DNA of 32,000 bases from Synechococcus elongatus PCC 6301. GTDB lineage: Bacteria > Cyanobacteriota > Cyanobacteriia > Synechococcales > Synechococcaceae. This document shows, piece by piece, positions 14,062 through 32,000 of this stretch. How positions within the stretch are numbered: the first letter of the stretch is position 1; each line of letters starts with the position of its first letter. Both the position numbers and the translations under genes were made by a program. The stretch covers positions 2,400,001-2,432,000 of the forward strand of contig NC_006576.1 in assembly GCF_000010065.1 (NCBI RefSeq), in the 5' to 3' direction. The notes below the pieces were generated by a model. The model did not search any database and was not told the origin of the DNA. It saw only the letters and a program-made list of their open reading frames with translations.

Positions 14062-14520
14062 TTACCAGCCGTGCAGTTTGCGTTTGAGTTGATCGAGTTC
14101 CTGGCGTAGCAGCGTGACTTCTTCGCGTAGAGTGGTCTGGCCGAGAACCAAATCCAGCCGCTGGGCGATCGCTTCTTGCAGCAGATCCGCTTCCGATAAA
14201 CCTTGATCCTGAGCCTGTTGCTGGAGTTGCTGTTGCCAACTGCGGGGGCAGGCCGTGCCCAACCAGACGCGATCGCTACCGTTCCCTTGCCGGAGCCGTT
14301 GCAAAAGGCGTTGCTGTAAGTCCGGATCGAGCAGCACTAAATCTAAGGCCGCCTCGATCACATCGCCAGCATGGACGGCGTAGCGATCGCAAAAGGTTTC
14401 AAACTCGCGGGGCAGGAGTTGCAGCGGGCGATCGCTCAGTTCGGGGCCGGTCGTGAGGCTTCCTTCCCGTGCGATGGGCGTTCGCGATCGCTTTTTGAGG
14501 CGGTCAAAGGCGTCAGTCAT
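14062..14520 (-). CDS. mcdB: McdB-like carboxysome-positioning adaptor (152 aa)
   Basis: Its start overlaps the stop of the upstream ParA-like gene (TGATG). It has a basic, disordered N-terminus (MTDAFDRLKKRSRTPIAREGS..) and a Q-rich predicted coiled coil (WQQQLQQQAQDQ...LLRQELDQLKRKL). The C-terminus is ..KLHGW. There is no HTH or ParB fold. This matches the published McdB hallmarks and the 152-aa size I recall for S. elongatus McdB. Confidence 0.7.
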   Translation of the reverse strand: MTDAFDRLKKRSRTPIAREGSLTTGPELSDRPLQLLPREFETFCDRYAVHAGDVIEAALDLVLLDPDLQQRLLQRLRQGNGSDRVWLGTACPRSWQQQLQQQAQDQGLSEADLLQEAIAQRLDLVLGQTTLREEVTLLRQELDQLKRKLHGW

Positions 14521-15284
14521 CAGCAGCCCAGCTTTTCAAGGATCGTCCGGAAAGGATACTCCAGATCGGCATACCCCAGCGCTGCCAAACTCACGCCTTG
14601 GTCGATCGCCTTTTTAAATTGCTCCGATTCCAAAATTGAGGGCAAGATCGGATGGCCTGCGGCAACTTCCTGCATCGATTCCAAACTTTTCTGGCTCTGC
14701 TTGGCTTGGGTACGACCCAACCAGCGATCGCGGAAGGGCAAAATCCCCAGAATCTGTCCCTGAAAGGCTTCCACCTCGCTCATTTCCGCCACGAGGTCGA
14801 GGGTGCGCAAGAGTGAGTTCAGTCCTTTGGAAGAAGCCTCAGCGGGGATCAAGAGCTGATCGGCCGCGCCCACACTGGTCATGCAGAGCTGCGATCGCTG
14901 GGGCGGCGCATCGATCACGCAAAAGTCAAATTGATCCTGCAAAGGACTCAACCGCCGCCGCAAAACAATCGCCCCCATCCCACTTGTCGCTAAAAAATCT
15001 TGGGCGCTATCTAAAGCATCATCAGCGGGGATCAGGGCGAGGCGATCGTCCAAGTTCCACAAACTATCAACGACATCAACTTCTTTTTTGAGCACTTCCA
15101 GTAAGGTAGCTTGCTCAGAACTCAGCTCACAGCCTAGATAAAAACTCAAGCTGGATTGCGGATCAGCATCGATCATCAACACGCGCTTACCCCGCGCCGC
15201 CAGCGATCGCCCGAGGAAAAGTGCCGTGGTGGTTTTTCCTTGTCCGCCTGAGAGCGACGCGCATGTGACCGTCAGCATCGACAA
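14520..15284 (-). CDS. mcdA: McdA-like ParA/MinD-family ATPase (carboxysome positioning)
   Basis: The deviant Walker A reads SGGQGKTT (15251..15231), with Ser where classical ParA has the signature Lys (KGGxxGKT). ParA-fold motifs present include MIDADPQ and DFCVIDAPP. GGGAGG sits 6 nt upstream of the ATG. Confidence 0.8.
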   Translation of the reverse strand: MSMLTVTCASLSGGQGKTTTALFLGRSLAARGKRVLMIDADPQSSLSFYLGCELSSEQATLLEVLKKEVDVVDSLWNLDDRLALIPADDALDSAQDFLATSGMGAIVLRRRLSPLQDQFDFCVIDAPPQRSQLCMTSVGAADQLLIPAEASSKGLNSLLRTLDLVAEMSEVEAFQGQILGILPFRDRWLGRTQAKQSQKSLESMQEVAAGHPILPSILESEQFKKAIDQGVSLAALGYADLEYPFRTILEKLGC

Positions 15285-17227: not shown

Positions 17228-17339
17228 GGGTATGAAGAAACCGCTGCGGCCCAAAAGTTCTTGCGGCGCTCTGGAAAAGCATCACTTAGAATGAGGTTAG
17301 CGGAGACAAATGTTTCCGTTCACTCCTCACACCACACTT

Positions 17340-17366
17340 CGCCCGGGCAACGCTCGGGCGTTTTTT
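17340..17366 (+). terminator. rho-independent terminator in the IMPDH-family/trxA spacer
   Basis: CGCCCGGG (17340-17347), loop CAACG, CTCGGGCG (17353-17360, one G-U pair), then TTTTTT (17361-17366). It lies 146 nt after the upstream stop and 134 nt before trxA. Confidence 0.75.
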
Positions 17367-24819: not shown

Positions 24820-24847
24820 TTGACGCGTTCAGGAAGCGCGCTATGAT
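24820..24847 (+). promoter_or_regulatory. near-consensus sigma-70-type promoter upstream of the signalling cluster
   Basis: TTGACG (24820-24825), a 16-nt spacer, then TATGAT (24842-24847). Confidence 0.45.
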
Positions 24848-24893
24848 TCGGCAGCATTCCAGCGCTTCAAAACGGCTCAAACAGCCGCTTCCC

Positions 24894-25160
24894 ATGGCCT
24901 ACCCTATCCCGACCAATCGGGAAGAGCTGTTGACGCTCTGCCGTCAACCAGCTGATAGCGAAATATTAGCGACTGCGATCGTGGGCATTATTCAATGGGC
25001 TCGCACCCAAGGTCAAAGTTTAGCGGATTTACAGGCTGAAATTTTGACAGAAGATCAGCTCCTCGAACCTGAACAAAGACAGTGGCTGTCTGAGTTATTA
25101 CTCAAGACTTGGCAGCAATTAGAAACAACGTCTGCCACTCACTCTGCTGAATCTTCCTAG
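24894..25160 (+). CDS. hypothetical small acidic protein (88 aa from this start)
   Basis: ORF 24816..25160. The first two start candidates lie inside or upstream of the predicted promoter, so ATG 24894 (MAYPIPTNREELL..) is preferred. No motif recognised. Confidence 0.4.
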   Translation: MAYPIPTNREELLTLCRQPADSEILATAIVGIIQWARTQGQSLADLQAEILTEDQLLEPEQRQWLSELLLKTWQQLETTSATHSAESS

Positions 25161-25262
25161 CCTTGGGGTTGGTGTTTTGGCACAATCGTTAAGACATAGG
25201 ATTGCGATCGTTGCTTTCACCCTGTGGCGGTGAGGTGATCAATCGGGGTGAGAGGATTAGGG

Positions 25263-25628
25263 ATGACTAAAATCTTGTTGGTAGAAGACAACGAAGACAA
25301 TTGGGATATGTTGTCGCGCCGTCTGACTCGCAAGGGTTTTGAAGTGGTCTTGGCTCACGATGGAGCTGCCGGTGTGGATACGGCACGGCGCGAGCAACCG
25401 GATCTGATTTTGATGGATATGAGCTTGCCAGTGATGGATGGCTGGGAGGCCACGCGCCAACTCAAAGCCGATCCTGAACTGCAACAGACGCCGGTGATTG
25501 CACTGACTGCCCACGCCATGGCTAGCGATCGCGAAAAGGCGATCGCCGCGGGCTGTGACGACTACGACACCAAGCCAATCGAGCTACCGCGCCTGCTCAG
25601 TAAAATTGCTCAGTTGCTCGAACGCTAG
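25263..25628 (+). CDS. single-domain response regulator (CheY-like receiver)
   Basis: ILLVEDNEDN, LILMDMSLPVMDG (phospho-acceptor Asp), ALTAHA and DYDTKP (conserved Lys). ATG 25263 is preferred over GTG 25248. Confidence 0.9.
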   Translation: MTKILLVEDNEDNWDMLSRRLTRKGFEVVLAHDGAAGVDTARREQPDLILMDMSLPVMDGWEATRQLKADPELQQTPVIALTAHAMASDREKAIAAGCDDYDTKPIELPRLLSKIAQLLER

Positions 25629-25673
25629 AGCCACCGTCGCGAGCCTTGGTTGCCCCCCTAACCCTCGACTGCC

Positions 25674-28607
25674 ATGAAGCTGCGCCGCCAATTCCTGTTG
25701 TTTGGAGTGGGGACAACCTTTACAGCGATCGCTGCGATCTCCTTATCGGATGTCATTACCAATACCCGACTGAGTGAGTCCAGTCGTGAGGAGGTGCAAT
25801 CCCTGCTGCAGCGTGAGCAAGAGAGCATCCTGTCGCGAACGTACACCGTGGTTCGGGTGCAGGGCACCTCGATCGAAAAGCAACTCAGTCGACAGATCCA
25901 GGTTCTCGATGAAGCCCTCCAACGAGCCGGCGGCCTCAGGACTGGCTCTCGCCTAGTGCGCTGGCAAGCTAAGAATCAATACACAGGCGCCATACAGCCT
26001 GTTGAGTTGCCGGAACTTCAGTTGGGTGGCCGCTGGCTCGATCAGGTTAGTCGCTTTGATCAGGCAGTGCCAGTGATTGACACAGTGTCTCGGCAAATGG
26101 GCGGCACTGTCACGATCTTCCAGCGGATCAACGATCGCGGTGACATGCTACGGGTCGCAACCACCGTCCCTAATCAGGATAAGCAGCGGGCGATCGGCAC
26201 CTACATCCCTGTGACCAATCCCAGTGGCGATCCCAACCCTGTGATTGCAGCAGTTTTGAAAGGTCAGACCTATCGCGGGCCAGCCTACATTGTCAATGAT
26301 TGGTACATCGCCATCTATCAGCCGCTCAAAGATGCTCAGGGGCGGGTTATCGGGATGATCTATGCCGGTCAACGTCAGGATCAAACCGGTGAACTAGCGC
26401 GCTCTTTTCAGGATTTGCGCTTTGGTCAAACCGGATCAGCTTTTGTTTTCCTGGGGCAGGGCAGCCAACGGGGCGAGACCATTCTGACCAGTGACCCATC
26501 GCTCCAGAAAAAAAACTTTTGGGATGCCAAAGACGCCTCAGGGCAGTTTTTTCTGCGAACTTCGATCGCAGATGCCATCCGCCAACCGGGTGCTTTTATT
26601 CGCGTTCGCTACTTGGCTCGCCCTTGGACGGAGGGGCTGCAATCGACGCAACCGGCTCGCCAAGAACAGATGCTACTGGTCTATTACCGCCCTTGGAACT
26701 GGGTTATTGGCATTCGCCAGGATAAGCAGGAATTTGCGGAACCCTTCCGCCGCCTAGAGGCTATTCAGCAGCGATCGCTCTACATTCAGTTACTGCTCGG
26801 TGTCATCATTGCGGTGCTCGGCGCAATCGCCGCCCGCGGTTGGGCTGCCCACTTAGGAATGCGCATTGAGCAGTTAGCCCATGCTGCCGATGCCATGGCC
26901 AGCGGCCAGCTCCAGCAACAAATTCCCACCAGTGGTCGCGATGAACTCACTGTGCTGGCCCAAGCCTTCAACCGGATGGCGGTTACACTGCGGGAGTTGC
27001 TGGTCAGTTTGGAGCATCGCGTCCAAGAACGTACGGCGGCTCTCCGAGAAACTAACGATCGCCTCGAACAGGCCCGTGAGCAGGCCGAAGCTGCAAACCA
27101 GGCTAAGAGTGCATTTCTAGCCAACATGAGCCACGAGTTGCGCACTCCCCTCAATGCCATCATTGGCTACAGCGAAATGATGATGGAAGAGGCAGAAGAC
27201 GGCATCGAGGTCGAAGAACTCCTGCCCGACTTCCGCAAGATCAACAATGCAGGCAAACACTTGCTGGAGCTGATCAACAGCATTCTGGACCTCTCCAAAA
27301 TTGAAGCGGGTCGCATGGAGCTTTACTTAGAAAGCTTCTCGCTGCCCGAGCTGATCAATGGTGTGAAATCGATTATCAAGCCCTTAATTGAAAAAAATCA
27401 GAATCAGCTGTTGGTGGACTGCCCAGCCGATATAGGGCTGATGACTGCTGATGTCACGAAGCTGCGGCAAACCTTGCTCAACCTTCTGTCTAATGCCAGC
27501 AAATTTACTCACCAAGGCACGATTCAGCTGCAGGTTGCTGCCCAGGGGGATCAGGTGGTCTTCAAGGTGGTTGATAGTGGCATTGGTATGTCACCGGAGC
27601 AGATCGATCGCATTTTTGAGGCGTTTGCCCAGGCAGATGATTCCACGACACGGAAATTCGGAGGCACAGGTCTTGGGCTTTCGATTAGCCGCCATTTCAT
27701 AGAAATGATGGGAGGCAAAATTACGGTTGAGAGCGTTCTCGGGGAAGGCAGTACGTTCACCATTACCCTGCCGCGCCAAGTGCAACCGCCGCAGTCGATC
27801 CCTGCGGTTGATCCAGTCCTGACTGATGAGGCGATCGCAACGGCCACTGAACAGGAAGATCAAAACCAGCCTGTGGTCCTCGTTGTGGATGATGAACCTA
27901 GTGCCCGCGAGTTGTTGCGCCGCATGCTGGAAAAGGAAGGCTATCGCGTCGTTACGGCAGCAGGGGGAGCTGAAGGGTTGCAGCGAGCGCAGGAACTGCG
28001 CCCTGCCCTGATCACCCTCGATTTGATGATGCCCCAGGTGGATGGTTGGTCAGTGCTAACCGCTCTCAAAGCCGATCCAATGCTGGCGGAGATTCCAGTG
28101 GTGATGGTGAGCATGGTGGAAGGGCGATCGCTCTCCTATGCCCTCGGTGCAGCTGGCTACCTCCACAAACCAATTGATCGCGACCAGTTGCGGCGGATCC
28201 TGGAGGGCTATACCCACCCCGATCGCCAGCCGCTGGCACTGGTTATTGAAGACGACCCAGTCAACCGATCGCTGCTGCGGCAATTGCTCGAGCGGGATGG
28301 CTGGCAGGTCGCAGAAGCCAACCAAGGGCAACAAGGCCTAGCTGTTTTGGAGTCGCTGGAGCAGCCGCCCGACCTGATCTTGCTGGATTTGATGATGCCC
28401 CAGATGGATGGCTTTGCCTTCGTCGACGCGCTGCGAGCTAACGGTAACTGGCAAACACTGCCGGTGATTGTGGTGACGGCTAAAGATCTGACGGAACAGG
28501 ATCGTCAGCGCCTGCAAGGGCGGGTCAGCCAGGTGATTGCCAAGGGGAATTTGGCGATCGATCGACTCCTGGCGGAAATTCGCCAAGTGGGGGCCAACCG
28601 TGTCTGA
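25674..28607 (+). CDS. hybrid sensor histidine kinase: TM, Cache-like periplasmic domain, TM, HAMP, HisKA, HATPase, REC, REC
   Basis: Two TM helices flank a sensor domain of about 330 aa. HAMP is present ([17 protein letters not shown]), as are the H-box [18 protein letters not shown] and the ATPase boxes ([27 protein letters not shown]). Two receivers follow ([13 protein letters not shown] and [13 protein letters not shown]). Confidence 0.9.
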
Positions 28608-29835
28608 GTCGCTTGAATCCTTAGCCAGGCTCGCTCACTGGCGCCATGAACTACGGACTCCCATCAACGCCATTTTGGGCTACAGCCAACTGCTGCTGGA
28701 GGATTGGGCAGGCACCGCGATTGCTACAGACCTAGAGCGGATCGAATCAGCTGGGCAGGAGTTACTGCGGCTCGTCAATGAAATTTTGGATCCTCACAGC
28801 AGCGATCGCGGTCTAAGCCTCGACACCTACCAGGCCCGTCTGCGCTACGCCCTGCGGACGCCGGTCAACACTGTTTGCGGTTATGTCGAGCTGCTGCTCG
28901 AGGAAGACTCGCCCGAACTGGCCGAGAGCCGAGTTGACTTAGAGCGGATTAGCGCAGCGGGCGAGCGTTTGCTAGAACAACTCGAGGCCATGGCAGCTTG
29001 GGATCAGCCGGCGAGCCAAGCTTCGGCTGTGGCGCTGTCAGAGATGGAGGTGGAGGTTGCCGAATCGGTGCTCCGCTATCGCCAAGCAGCGGTGTCAGCG
29101 TCGGCAGTCACGGGCGGTCGACTGTTGGTTGCCGAGGACAACGAGATCAACCGTGATGTCTTGGAGCGTCGTCTGCGTCGTCTTGGGCATGACGTCGTCT
29201 GTGTTGCTTCGGGGCAAGAAGCTCTGAATCAATTAGCGCAACAGCCCTTCGATTTGCTGTTCCTCGATCTGATGATGCCGGGACTGACCGGTTTTGAGGT
29301 GCTGCAGCAGCTCAAGGCAGATCCCACCTTAGCTGAGCTGCCTGTGCTGATGATTTCGGCGCTGGATGACCTTGAGAGTGTGATTCGCTGTCTGCGCTTG
29401 GGTGCGACTGACTATCTGACCAAACCGTTTGAACCAACGCTGTTACAAACGCGTTTGGAGACTTGCCTCCAGCACAAACGTCTGCGCGATCGCGAGTTGG
29501 ACTACTTGCGTAATGTTGCGATTGTCACGGATGCGGCGGTGGCCGTGGAGGCGGGTGACTACGATCGCGATCGCCTCCAGACGGTGGCAGAGCGCAGCGA
29601 CGCACTGGGGCAGTTGGCACGCATGTTTCGCCAGATGACCCGCTCGGTAGAACAGCGAGAAACCCAGCTCAAGCAGACAATTCGGCGTTTAGAGCTGCAG
29701 ATCGACACCGCTACCGTCAAAAGCCAAGTCAAGGAGATCACGGAGTCGGATTATTTCCGTGACCTTGAGAGCCGTGCCCGCCAAATTCGCCGCGATCGCA
29801 GCTATCGTTCTTCGCCCCCTGACCGCCATGCCTAA
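28600..29835 (+). CDS. response regulator with two N-terminal DHp (HisKA-like) modules, no ATPase domain, and a C-terminal HAMP-like/coiled-coil module
   Basis: GTG 28600 overlaps the kinase stop by 8 nt. H-box 1 is [22 protein letters not shown] (His codon 28645-28647). H-box 2 is [23 protein letters not shown], with Tyr (28846-28848) in the His position. The receiver reads [11 protein letters not shown]...[13 protein letters not shown]...YLTKPF. No N/G1/G2 ATP-binding boxes were seen. Confidence 0.8.
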
Positions 29836-30574
29836 TCCCAACGCCTTGGCGGAACTGCAAGCACTGGAGCTGTTACAAACTTGTACCCCGGCTGAACTAG
29901 CAGATCTGGCCCATTGCCTGCAACCCCAGACACTCCAAGCGCAAGAAGCTCTATTCCACTGTGGCGATCCAGCAGCAGCGCTCTACTGGATTCGCTCAGG
30001 ACGGGTGGGCGTTTTTGTCGCCGATGGTAGCAACAACCAGCATGAGTCGTTGCTGCGCGTGCTGGGGGCCGGTGCTCTGCTGGGAGAGATGGCCCTGATC
30101 GATGGGCAACCACGATCGGCGACTTGTCGGGCCTTGGAACCGACGCAACTTTACGCGGTCACTAGCCAAGATTTTCAGCAGTTGCTAACGCGATCGCCCC
30201 AGTTTGTGCAGGCCTTGTTGGCAACCCTGAGCCAGCGGTTGCGCTATACCAATCAGTTCCTGAGTGAAGTGGGGGCGGGCGTGCAGCAGTTGGCAAGCGG
30301 CCAGTATGCCCCCCTAGCGCAACTGCAAAGTCCAGATCACTCCCTTGAACATCTGGCAACGGCTTTTGCCCAGATGGCTCTGAGGGCGCAGCAGCGGGAA
30401 GTGGCTCTGCAGGAACGGATTCGGCGTTTGGAATTAGAAGTCGATGCTTGTCGCCTCCAACAGTCTGTGGCAGAAATCACCGAGTCAGAGTTCTTCGTGC
30501 ATCTCCAACAGCGGGCGCAGCAAATTCGGCGCAATCGCCACAAATCCTTGCCGCCCCAAGCCGATTCTGAATAA
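29828..30574 (+). CDS. cyclic-nucleotide-binding domain protein with a C-terminal HAMP-like/coiled-coil module
   Basis: ATG 29828 overlaps the upstream stop by 8 nt (ATGCCTAA). The cNMP-binding signature LLGEMALIDGQPRSATCRA is present. The C-terminal 49 aa align without gaps to the tail of the preceding protein. Confidence 0.8.
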   Translation: MPNPNALAELQALELLQTCTPAELADLAHCLQPQTLQAQEALFHCGDPAAALYWIRSGRVGVFVADGSNNQHESLLRVLGAGALLGEMALIDGQPRSATCRALEPTQLYAVTSQDFQQLLTRSPQFVQALLATLSQRLRYTNQFLSEVGAGVQQLASGQYAPLAQLQSPDHSLEHLATAFAQMALRAQQREVALQERIRRLELEVDACRLQQSVAEITESEFFVHLQQRAQQIRRNRHKSLPPQADSE

Positions 30575-30700: not shown

Positions 30701-32000
30701 ATGGCGATTCTAGAGCAAGGCAATATCACGATTCATACCGATAACATTTTCCCGATTATCAAAAAGTCGCTCTACTCAGAGCATGAAATCTTTTTGCGGG
30801 AACTGATTTCTAATGCAGTGGATGCCATTCAAAAGCTGAAGATGGTGTCCTATGCCGGTGAATTAGAGGGTGAAATCGGTGACCCCCAAATCACACTGAG
30901 TATCGATCGCGATCGCAAACAACTCAAAATTGCCGATAACGGTATTGGGATGACAGCCGATGAGATTAAGCGTTATATCAATCAAGTTGCCTTTTCAAGT
31001 GCAGAGGACTTTATTGAAAAATATAAAGGCGGAGCTGATCAGCCTATCATTGGTCACTTTGGTCTAGGCTTCTACTCAGCTTTTATTGTTGCTGATCGGG
31101 TGGAAATTGAAACCCTCTCCTATCAAAAAGGAGCGACACCTGTTCATTGGACTTGTGATGGATCTCCAAGCTTTGAACTGTCAGAGGGGAGCCGTACGGA
31201 GCGAGGAACAACGATTATTCTTAATCTTAGTGAGGAGGAGTTAGAGTACTTAGAACCTGCTCGTATTCGTCAGCTTGTTAAGACCTATTGTGACTTCATG
31301 CCCGTTCCGATCGCTTTAGAGGGAGAAGTCTTAAACAAGCAAAAAGCAATTTGGCGAGAATCAGCTGGCAATCTCAAAGAAGAAGACTACCAAGAGTTTT
31401 ATCGCTACCTGTATCCATTTCAAGATGAACCATTGTTATGGGTTCATCTCAACACAGATTACCCCTATCAAGTGAATGGTGTTCTCTATTTCCCGAAATT
31501 GCGGCCCGATATTGATCTAACTCAAGGACAAATTAAACTATTCTGCAATCAAGTCTTTGTCAGCGATCACTGTGAAGAAGTTGTGCCGCGTTTTCTCTTG
31601 CCGATGCGAGGGGTGATCGATAGTCCTGATATTCCTCTCAATGTGTCGCGCAGTGCGCTGCAAGCCGATCGCAAGGTGCGGAGTATTGCTGGCTTCATCG
31701 CCAAGAAAGTGGGCGATCGCCTCAAAGAACTCTATCGCTCGCAACGCGACCAATATCTCAATATTTGGTCAGATCTCAGCACCTTTGTGAAGTTTGGCTG
31801 TCTCAATGATCAAAAATTCAGAGAACAGGTCAAAGAGATTCTCGTTTTTCGGAGTAGTGCTGAGCTCAGCGAGGCGACCAGTAGCGATCGTGGTCAAGAT
31901 AGCCAAGGTAATTGGTACACTACTCTGCAGGCCTACCTCGAACGCAACCAGGAAAAACACGAAAATCGTGTCTATTACTGTACGGATGCTGCTAGCCAAG
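30701..32000 (+). CDS. htpG: molecular chaperone HtpG (Hsp90), N-terminal ~433 codons; runs off the right edge
   Basis: Absent from the ORF track because it has no stop in the window. ATG 30701 gives MAILEQGNITIHTDNIFPIIKKSLYSEHEIFLRELISNAVDAIQKLK...IGHFGLGFYSAFIVADRVEI, which carries the Hsp90 N-terminal ATP-binding motifs. Confidence 0.9.
   Translation, partial: MAILEQGNITIHTDNIFPIIKKSLYSEHEIFLRELISNAVDAIQKLKMVSYAGELEGEIGDPQITLSIDRDRKQLKIADNGIGMTADEIKRYINQVAFSSAEDFIEKYKGGADQPIIGHFGLGFYSAFIVADRVEIETLSYQKGATPVHWTCDGSPSFELSEGSRTERGTTIILNLSEEELEYLEPARIRQLVKTYCDFMPVPIALEGEVLNKQKAIWRESAGNLKEEDYQEFYRYLYPFQDEPLLWVHLNTDYPYQVNGVLYFPKLRPDIDLTQGQIKLFCNQVFVSDHCEEVVPRFLLPMRGVIDSPDIPLNVSRSALQADRKVRSIAGFIAKKVGDRLKELYRSQRDQYLNIWSDLSTFVKFGCLNDQKFREQVKEILVFRSSAELSEATSSDRGQDSQGNWYTTLQAYLERNQEKHENRVYYCTDAASQ

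Follow-up and report, generated by a model that had tools for sequence, protein, structure and literature searches.

The subject of this study is a cluster of co-directional signaling genes in Synechococcus elongatus PCC 6301. It lies in a stretch of 32,000 nt (NC_006576.1, positions 2,400,001 to 2,432,000 of the forward strand), here called the window, to which all positions refer unless another sequence is named; the genes are designated by their Synpcc7942 locus numbers (1818 to 1813). The cluster comprises a small open reading frame (ORF), a single-domain receiver (REC) protein, a membrane-bound hybrid histidine kinase, a protein with two dimerization and histidine phosphotransfer (DHp) domains and a receiver, and a cyclic nucleotide monophosphate (cNMP)-binding protein (Table 1). 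The original prediction, made from the letters of this DNA without database searches, had described five genes on one strand, and all of them are present, on the plus strand, where it placed them. Pfam annotation bore out its count of four receivers, a single kinase core and one tandem-DHp protein lacking a kinase. Our analysis suggests that the tandem-DHp protein, 1815, might unite the phosphotransferase and the terminal regulator of a phosphorelay in one chain, and that it shares a likely output module, termed HAMP-plus-tail in the following, with the cNMP-binding protein 1814.

Table 1. Features of the cluster and of one related locus
Feature	Position	Strand	Evidence or remark
Promoter candidate, sigma-70-like, TTGACG-16-TATGAT	24820-24847	+	scan score 10/12
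Small ORF Synpcc7942_1818, 88 aa	24894-25160	+	no Pfam or NCBIfam match
ltnA (Synpcc7942_1817), single-domain receiver, DivK-like, 121 aa	25263-25628	+	Response_reg E 2e-27
ltnB (Synpcc7942_1816), membrane hybrid histidine kinase, 977 aa	25674-28607	+	Pfam
Synpcc7942_1815, HisKA-HisKA-REC + HAMP-plus-tail, 411 aa	28600-29835	+	Pfam HisKA (two), Response_reg
HAMP-plus-tail module of 1815	29497-29811	+	HAMP ~aa 300-352, tail ~353-404
Synpcc7942_1814, cNMP_binding + HAMP-plus-tail, 248 aa	29828-30574	+	Pfam cNMP_binding E 4e-22
HAMP-plus-tail module of 1814	30239-30547	+	tail RRLELEVD...EITESEFF...RAQQIRR
htpG (Synpcc7942_1813), start	30701		downstream of 1814
MinD-like ATPase and ~975-aa membrane protein, locus L092	7884-8639 and 8652-11579 of L092		also in L097, L103, L124, L133 and others

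Two of these genes already bear names. According to the gene tables in the supplements of two studies using random barcode transposon-site sequencing (RB-TnSeq), 1817 is ltnA, 1816 is ltnB and Synpcc7942_0366 is ltnT, encoding a SulP transporter, and 1815, 1814 and 1818 are listed there without a gene name. The lengths and the order of ltnA and ltnB in these tables agree with the genes in Table 1, upstream of htpG. The original statement that no characterized pathway could be named for this locus is wrong for these two genes. The names ltnA, ltnB and ltnT, short for "latent nitrate transport", go back to work by Maeda, Sugita, Sugita and Omata in 2006 (J Biol Chem 281:5869). Mutations in ltnA are reported to unmask LtnT-dependent nitrate uptake in a mutant without the ABC nitrate transporter. 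LtnT itself is described, in a preprint that cites Maeda 2006, as a SulP nitrate transporter with a cytosolic cyclic-nucleotide-binding-like domain. Its gene lies outside the window, in the region 356676-359732 of the S. elongatus chromosome NC_007604, and is preceded by Synpcc7942_0365, encoding a 209-aa 'CheY-like' receiver protein, the length of which would permit a receiver and a short C-terminal extension. In the open full-text literature, the locus tags 1814 to 1818 are not mentioned in any main text, queries for tandem HisKA or for MinD together with HAMP returned nothing relevant, and neither the tandem DHp, the shared HAMP-plus-tail module nor the cross-phylum cassette was found there. 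The cluster is the locus of the Ltn system.

LtnB is composed of a periplasmic Cache_3-Cache_2 region (aa 35-362), a HAMP domain (397-441), HisKA (477-546; Pfam E 9e-19) and HATPase_c (593-702; E 2.5e-31), which together form a complete kinase core, and two receivers (REC1, 735-843; REC2, ~853-977). The equivalents of the acidic pair (D13), the acceptor aspartate (D57), T/S87 and K109 are intact in all four receivers of the cluster. LtnA is strikingly conserved: small receivers from many phyla, at more than 30 loci, share 58-77% (mostly 64-77%) identity with it. The kinase core of LtnB is 45-55% identical to kinases from cassettes of the same kind in other phyla. The solved structure closest to LtnA is that of DivK from Caulobacter (1m5t, E 7.5e-26), followed by PleD.

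Protein 1815 starts with DHp1 (aa ~2-62), which carries His16, and DHp2 (~74-133), in which Tyr83 replaces the histidine; a receiver with Asp223 (174-290) and the HAMP-plus-tail module (~300-404) follow. Pfam detected no HATPase_c domain in it at E ≤ 0.01, and the full-length homologs are likewise without one. The histidine of DHp1 is conserved in 89 of 89 homologs, as is an acidic residue (E/D) at position +1, and threonine occupies position +4 in 86 of 89, whereas DHp2 retains its histidine in only 64 of 89. Relatives that carry a cyclase may have either DHp copy degenerate, with a canonical H-box present in 13 of the 14 proteins checked. These features would fit a His-containing phosphotransfer element without kinase activity. 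The AlphaFold2 model of 1815 (pLDDT 83.7, pTM 0.70) has four confident N-terminal helices, the receiver and long C-terminal helices, and a Foldseek search with this model gave matches to the receiver only. Within a single chain, the tandem DHp is expected to form a pseudo-dimeric four-helix bundle. Full-length homologs from outside S. elongatus are 43-50% identical to 1815 and stem from Anaerolineae (Chloroflexota), Rubrobacter (Actinomycetota), and Thermoanaerobaculia-like and other metagenome-assembled genomes (MAGs); none of those found is cyanobacterial.

In every context of an 1815 homolog examined, a hybrid kinase of the type HisKA-HATPase-REC-REC and a receiver of 121-127 aa adjoin it, often with 4-nt overlaps. 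The trio of kinase, small receiver and DHp-DHp-REC gene was found at tight or overlapping spacing in Anaerolineae, Acidobacteriota, Gemmatimonadota, Proteobacteria and cyanobacteria. The co-conservation that had been named as a check of the prediction is for these three genes borne out across many phyla, and judged by its distribution the trio is apparently an ancient cassette. Its third gene is modular, with either a class III cyclase, a Ser/Thr kinase or HAMP-plus-tail behind the DHp-DHp-REC unit. A class III adenylate/guanylate cyclase forms the output in L007, L010, L012, L016, L018, L019, L022 and L048, and a plain REC-cyclase is the third gene in the cyanobacterium Capilliphycus (L024) and in a gammaproteobacterial MAG (L030). 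In two Gemmatimonadota MAGs (L008, 6248-8269; L009, 136-2232), a Ser/Thr kinase domain replaces the tail behind DHp-DHp-REC-HAMP; such a fusion would be a His-Asp relay driving a Hanks-type kinase. Since a Ser/Thr kinase replaces the tail in these proteins and a cyclase replaces the entire module elsewhere, the C-terminal position can be regarded as an output slot. The cyclase-type cassettes (kinase core 39-55% and LtnA-like receiver 64-72% identical) have the same N-terminal DHp-DHp-REC unit as S. elongatus and end in a class III cyclase, in place of which S. elongatus possesses HAMP-plus-tail and a separate cNMP-binding protein. These cassettes came from a genome scan with the 1815 alignment whose patterns (H-box, DYLxKPF) were too generic and returned mostly unrelated hybrid kinases; the loci were reused as a control set.

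Of the 11 DHp-REC-tail loci that extend far enough upstream, 10 encode an LtnA-like receiver, against none of 16 DHp-less REC-tail loci, which also follow a hybrid kinase (Fisher p = 1.3e-6). This association favors a relay resembling Spo0F/Spo0B/Spo0A. The same logic is known from CckA-ChpT-CtrA and from Pak-SdrG-PhyT-PhyR, a precedent for the sequence of kinase, single-domain receiver, DHp phosphotransferase and response regulator (PMC5898713), and the counterparts would be LtnB, LtnA, the DHp1-DHp2 region and the receiver of 1815. There are also clear differences. The tandem DHp of 1815 has no pseudo-ATPase domain and forms one chain with the terminal regulator, LtnB is a hybrid kinase that brings two receivers of its own, and the output is HAMP-plus-tail, not a DNA-binding domain. 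Protein 1815 has no detectable orthology to Spo0B, ChpT or PhyT. With the receivers intact and the DHp1 histidine and the LtnA-like receiver conserved as described, the multi-step His-Asp-His-Asp relay of the original prediction is plausible.

The same proteins could also form a branched circuit like that of DivJ/PleC, DivK and PleD in Caulobacter, where a small, very conserved receiver and a larger regulator stand under the same kinase. LtnB would then phosphorylate LtnA and the receiver of 1815 in parallel, and the DHp domains of 1815, instead of transferring phosphoryl groups, would serve phosphorylated LtnA as a docking site, as a phosphatase or as an allosteric site for its control of 1815. 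The structural proximity of LtnA to DivK and then PleD is in line with this, and so are the receiver of 1815, which is nearest to PleD, and the best NCBIfam match of 1815, the PleD family. Phosphorylated DivK acts on DivL, the DHp domain of which carries a tyrosine in place of histidine, as does DHp2 of 1815. Isolated DHp domains such as domain A of EnvZ can dephosphorylate their cognate receivers, and the phosphatase motif of HisKA (E/D at +1, T/N at +4) is intact in DHp1. Moreover, LtnA-like receivers also occur beside REC-cyclases without DHp. However, Pfam detects no GGDEF domain in 1815, which in turn has DHp domains that PleD lacks, and organisms and physiology differ. More importantly, the invariant DHp1 histidine and the H-box retained in 13 of 14 relatives would be expected of a phosphoryl carrier and are needless for docking or for a phosphatase, and the DHp domains and the LtnA-like receiver come and go together. 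We consider the branched circuit a serious rival, even if on balance an unlikely one.

A further role that a kinase-less DHp protein might play is that of an inhibitor like RetS. In this case the DHp domains of 1815 would form heteromers with the DHp domain of LtnB and block or divert the autophosphorylation of LtnB, and the receiver and the tail would only tune this interaction. A repeat comparison found the H-box and alpha-1 residues of LtnB and DHp1 to be nearly alike, 1815 is without an ATPase domain, and ltnB and 1815 are linked by an 8-nt overlap. A tandem DHp, however, more likely satisfies its own bundle, and the strictly conserved, complete receiver and the output module argue for 1815 as an end-point of signaling. 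In addition, cyclases and Ser/Thr kinases carry this N-terminal unit as well, and such outputs need to be activated, for which inhibition of a kinase would not serve; we therefore regard an inhibitor of this kind as very improbable.

The relay favored here would end in the C-terminus of 1815. Its last ~100 aa are shared with 1814 (best local alignment 73 aa, 48% identity, E 2e-17). The first half of this module is HAMP-like: PF00672 is matched by 8 of 12 members (best E 1.8e-7), neither the isolated 1814 module nor full-length 1815 gave such a match, and the module profile matches the HAMP domain of NarQ weakly (E 0.08). The second half is a helical tail with the consensus LRIEIDE-x5-QVAEITETDYFxxLQxKAxxLR, which reads RRLELQID...EITESDYF...RARQIRR in 1815 and for which no Pfam family and no PDB relative were found. 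For both C-termini, AlphaFold2 predicts a long helix and a terminal helix that are separated by a break at EITES. The likeness of IEID in the tail to the 'EIDAL' motif of FliM is too short to mean anything.

A search of 1.84 billion representative proteins with the module profile returned 1,560 clusters at E ≤ 1e-10, and a word-indexed search gave mainly short fragments. The hosts belong to Chloroflexota, Actinomycetota, Acidobacteriota, Proteobacteria, Deinococcota and cyanobacteria, and several loci besides that of S. elongatus encode two to three module proteins. The module is located at the extreme C-terminus in essentially all cases and ends within ~45 residues of it in all full-module proteins examined (10 and 9 residues follow in the two S. 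elongatus proteins). Its inputs are diverse: a receiver alone is the commonest (~235 aa), and DHp-DHp-REC, cNMP, cNMP-cNMP, GAF and PAS domains occur as well as transmembrane receptors resembling methyl-accepting chemotaxis proteins (dCache, CHASE3, 4HB/TarH). An Anaerolineae MAG even encodes an 812-aa NB-ARC/TPR (STAND) protein with the tail part only, again at the extreme C-terminus (L003, 9326-11764), and this gene overlaps the stop codon of a DHp-REC-tail gene. A census of 119 module representatives showed no enzymatic domain among its commonest families. With inputs so varied and enzymatic domains missing from these commonest families, the module is best read as the output or transmitter itself, and HAMP-plus-tail is the likely output of 1815 and 1814. 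The original prediction had recorded no DNA-binding or enzymatic output domain in the cluster; Pfam and NCBIfam indeed detect none, and what had been missed is this C-terminal module. Genes for SET-domain methyltransferases adjoin module genes at two unrelated loci, on a 2.1-Mb MAG contig (L004, 9299-10621) and on a Deinococcus plasmid (L171, 14766-15242).

In 1814 the module follows a cyclic-nucleotide-binding (CNB) domain with an intact phosphate-binding cassette (GEMALIDGQPRSAT; pattern G-E...R-[ST]-A), and G86, E87 and R96 are invariant in 20 homologs. cNMP_binding is the sole domain match in Pfam, which finds no helix-turn-helix (HTH) domain, and the NCBIfam match to CRP is confined to the CNB domain and scores 62 bits, below the cut-off of 266. 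AlphaFold2 models a confident CNB fold with long C-terminal helices, and Foldseek retrieves the CNB domains of CRP, MloK1, PKA and CNG channels. Since its C-terminus is formed by HAMP-plus-tail instead of an HTH domain, 1814 does not appear to be a regulator of the CRP/FNR type. A certain analogy exists to CNG channels, in which the CNB domain also precedes a coiled coil; this C-terminal leucine zipper (CLZ) sets the composition of the hetero-oligomer. CNG channel structures that include the CLZ occur among the fold matches of 1814; however, Pfam yields no significant CLZ match (E 0.23), a HAMP-like region intervenes in 1814, and there is no channel. A cyclic-nucleotide input via 1814, as originally proposed, seems plausible in view of the intact cassette, the class III cyclases at the end of sister cassettes and the cNMP-binding-like domain of LtnT.

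Elsewhere, proteins of the cNMP-tail type are usually encoded right after a cyclase-STAND protein of ~1,300 aa. In L165, L167, L169, L087, L088, L133, L159 and L127, the cNMP-HAMP-tail gene lies immediately downstream of a gene for a ~1,230-1,430-aa protein, which contains, where annotated, Guanylate_cyc and STAND AAA_16 domains (TPRs in L133). This neighborhood suggests local pairs of producer and sensor. L167 additionally harbors a Che-like cluster and a REC-GAF-tail protein.

There are several indications that 1814 and 1815 belong together. Their tails are 52% identical, a value that no cross-locus comparison of either tail reached, whereas their HAMP parts share only 24% identity and each resembles its own class. 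This lineage-specific co-divergence is suggestive of tails that either contact each other or share a changed partner. After 2 h of ultraviolet (UV) irradiation, 1814 (log2 change +1.74) and 1815 (+1.82) were induced together, with 1816 (+1.07) and ltnT (+1.14) also increased. In the first condition of the fitness table, mutants in ltnB, 1815 and ltnT show alike small fitness defects.

The partner of the tail might be an ATPase. Of the 78 metagenomic loci retrieved by way of the module, 50 encode a tightly conserved MinD/FleN-like ATPase of ~251 aa, which is missing from all 80 control loci, retrieved with generic patterns for kinases and receivers (p = 3e-21). Among module loci of at least 5 kb it is present in 35 of 45, usually directly downstream of the module gene, and it occurs in 7 of the 11 DHp-REC-tail loci. 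Its Walker A motif is RGGTGKS, no NCBIfam equivalog matches it, and the NCBI Prokaryotic Genome Annotation Pipeline (PGAP) names it 'MinD/ParA family protein'. Often, a membrane protein of ~975 aa follows (Table 1); it showed no more than a weak amino-acid-permease-like region and no relative in the PDB. On plasmid pNPUN02 of Nostoc punctiforme (L170, NC_010632.1 38120-42869), genes for a Cache-HAMP-tail protein, the MinD-like ATPase, a hypothetical protein and a cNMP-binding protein stand in a row, all with generic PGAP names.

These numbers raise the possibility that the tails of 1815 and 1814 do not meet but dock separately on the true effector, which might be LtnT, a TPR/STAND protein or a MinD/ParA-like ATPase from another part of the S. 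elongatus genome, and that 1814 provides an independent cNMP input competing for this effector. Besides the frequent ATPase and its occurrence in cyanobacteria such as N. punctiforme, the three other multi-module loci L005, L134 and L122 fit this idea, as they are without convergence of the tails within the locus. The co-divergence in S. elongatus may therefore reflect a shared, lineage-specific partner and not direct pairing. On the other hand, neither the window nor the adjoining 10 kb downstream encodes such an ATPase, and the two S. elongatus tails diverged together from the consensus. As this co-divergence would also fit a third partner that was changed or lost, the idea overlaps with the explanation we prefer; as a separate explanation it is clearly improbable. 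A ParA-family ATPase does occur in the window (14520-15284, minus strand; Walker A SLSGGQGKTT), followed by a 152-aa protein (14062-14520, minus strand), and we take the two to be the carboxysome-positioning pair McdA/McdB (Synpcc7942_1833/1834). In the Walker A motif of McdA, serine replaces the signature lysine. McdA was considered as the missing ATPase and rejected: a direct search gave no match, its motif SGGQGKT differs from RGGTGKS, and it belongs to a different ParA family.

The arrangement of the genes itself carries further information. The overlaps of ltnB with 1815 (GTGTCTGA, 28600-28607) and of 1815 with 1814 (ATGCCTAA, 29828-29835), both pointed out originally, are present in the sequence and are retained together with the gene arrangement in strain IITB7, a divergent S. 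elongatus with proteins ~88% identical. The second one depends on the start of 1814, since the TTG at 29846 used in an older annotation (242 aa) would leave no overlap. The ATG at 29828 (248 aa) is backed by a conserved methionine and N-terminus in seven orthologs of the S. elongatus clade, and an identical 248-aa protein is encoded on CP130602.1. For 1818, the alternative start ATG at 24843 (105 aa) falls within the -10 hexamer and is lost in IITB7. The comparative data favor 88 aa for 1818 and 248 aa for 1814. The promoter proposed upstream of the genes is present as well; sites of its class are, by scan alone, not above chance (2 in 7 kb, 3.1 ± 2.0 in shuffled sequence). In IITB7 it reads TTGACC-16-TAAGAT, and because hexamers and 16-nt spacing persist there between a diverged spacer and diverged flanks, the candidate can be regarded as a phylogenetic footprint. 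A terminator-like hairpin is located 3' of 1818, Rfam matches no RNA element in the cluster, and the DNA repeats of the cluster merely mirror its paralogous REC and HisKA domains. A single operon of all five genes is unproven.

Whether all five genes belong together is a related question, as 1818 and 1814 might be unrelated neighbors of a three-gene two-component unit. The terminator-like hairpin after 1818 is consistent with this, and so is the distribution of the flanking genes. In the alignment with IITB7, 1818 evolves as a coding sequence, in frame and with mostly synonymous changes. No relative was found among the ORFs of all fetched loci from outside S. elongatus, and co-conservation is not supported for this ORF. 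In the case of 1814, cNMP-tail genes elsewhere usually follow a large cyclase-STAND gene and not a DHp-REC-tail gene; its position next to the DHp gene is nearly specific to S. elongatus in our sample, L134 being the one other locus with both genes. Arguments against an accidental position of 1814 come from the module and the co-diverged tail that it has in common with 1815, from the 8-nt overlap conserved between the two genes and from their joint induction; L134 likewise holds a cNMP-cNMP-tail gene and a DHp-REC-tail gene. As a whole, a partly accidental grouping is most improbable; as to 1818 alone, it may well be right. We regard both the small ORF and the adjacency to htpG as incidental to the cluster. 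As predicted, htpG follows the cluster, but a functional link was rejected, because none of the related loci, among them the 11 others of the DHp-REC-tail type, contains the gene and UV left its expression unchanged (+0.09), which speaks against co-regulation.

The base composition of the window deserves a short comment, as the nearest relatives of 1815 are not cyanobacterial. The repeat HIP1 (GCGATCGC) occurs 82 times in the window, with ~1 copy expected. Horizontal transfer of the cluster is without compositional support, since its GC content of 54-59% and its 13 HIP1 sites are both typical of the window. The interior of htpG (31001-32000), next to the cluster, is a compositional outlier with a GC content down to 45.6%, compared with 52-60% across most of the window, and a further dip to 49% is found at 17-18 kb. 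Rfam matches the cyanobacterial small RNA Yfr1 (RF01116) at 17300-17362 on the plus strand (62 bits, gathering score 38).

Taken together, we propose the following model of a four-step relay with protein assembly as its output, to which we assign a probability of roughly 45%. The Cache_3-Cache_2 region of LtnB would sense a periplasmic ligand and LtnB would autophosphorylate. The phosphoryl group would then pass via LtnA to His16 in the tandem DHp of 1815, which would take the role of Spo0B, ChpT or PhyT, and from there to Asp223 of the same protein. The phosphorylated receiver would switch the C-terminal HAMP-plus-tail module as the output. Protein 1814 might join 1815 in an assembly formed by the tails, or the two might compete for a common partner; either way, one complex would integrate phosphorylation with cNMP occupancy, and the 8-nt overlaps would favor matched synthesis of the proteins. 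The end effect might be post-translational control of the SulP transporter LtnT (0366), in keeping with the genetic link that Maeda and colleagues reportedly described in 2006.

Several observations weigh against this model. The two receivers of LtnB could feed DHp1 directly, which would make LtnA a sink, and an LtnA-like receiver also occurs in ~8 cassettes with a DHp-less third gene (e.g. the REC-cyclases of L024, L030 and L033). The lack of tail convergence at the three other multi-module loci and the lack of a MinD-like ATPase in and downstream of the window have to be counted here as well. Finally, ltnA (+0.25) and 1818 (+0.72) were not co-induced with the distal three genes, and the evidence from co-expression is weak, because many genes shift after 2 h of UV.

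Rather doubtful, in our estimation, is a broader reading. In this reading HAMP-plus-tail would be a new class of signaling output that couples sensors to a dedicated MinD/ParA-like ATPase, often together with the ~975-aa membrane protein, the DHp-DHp-REC proteins would be single-chain fusions of the Spo0B and Spo0A functions fed by a near-invariant DivK-like receiver, and in S. elongatus a hetero-complex uniting the LtnAB phosphorelay with a cyclic nucleotide would gate LtnT post-translationally.

Because S. elongatus PCC 7942 serves as a model in genetics and LtnT-dependent nitrate uptake provides the Ltn system with a phenotype that can be selected for, the unnamed genes 1815 and 1814 are open to direct tests. 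If the model is true, it would explain how LtnA, a regulator without an effector domain, reaches a transporter. It would also establish a fused design of phosphotransferase and regulator, in which a tandem DHp serves as a single-chain bundle, and would link His-Asp relays to cyclic-nucleotide signaling, in line with the class III cyclase at the end of the cassette in many bacteria. Moreover, a function would emerge for the output module, which is widespread but unannotated, and for its partner, the MinD-like ATPase.

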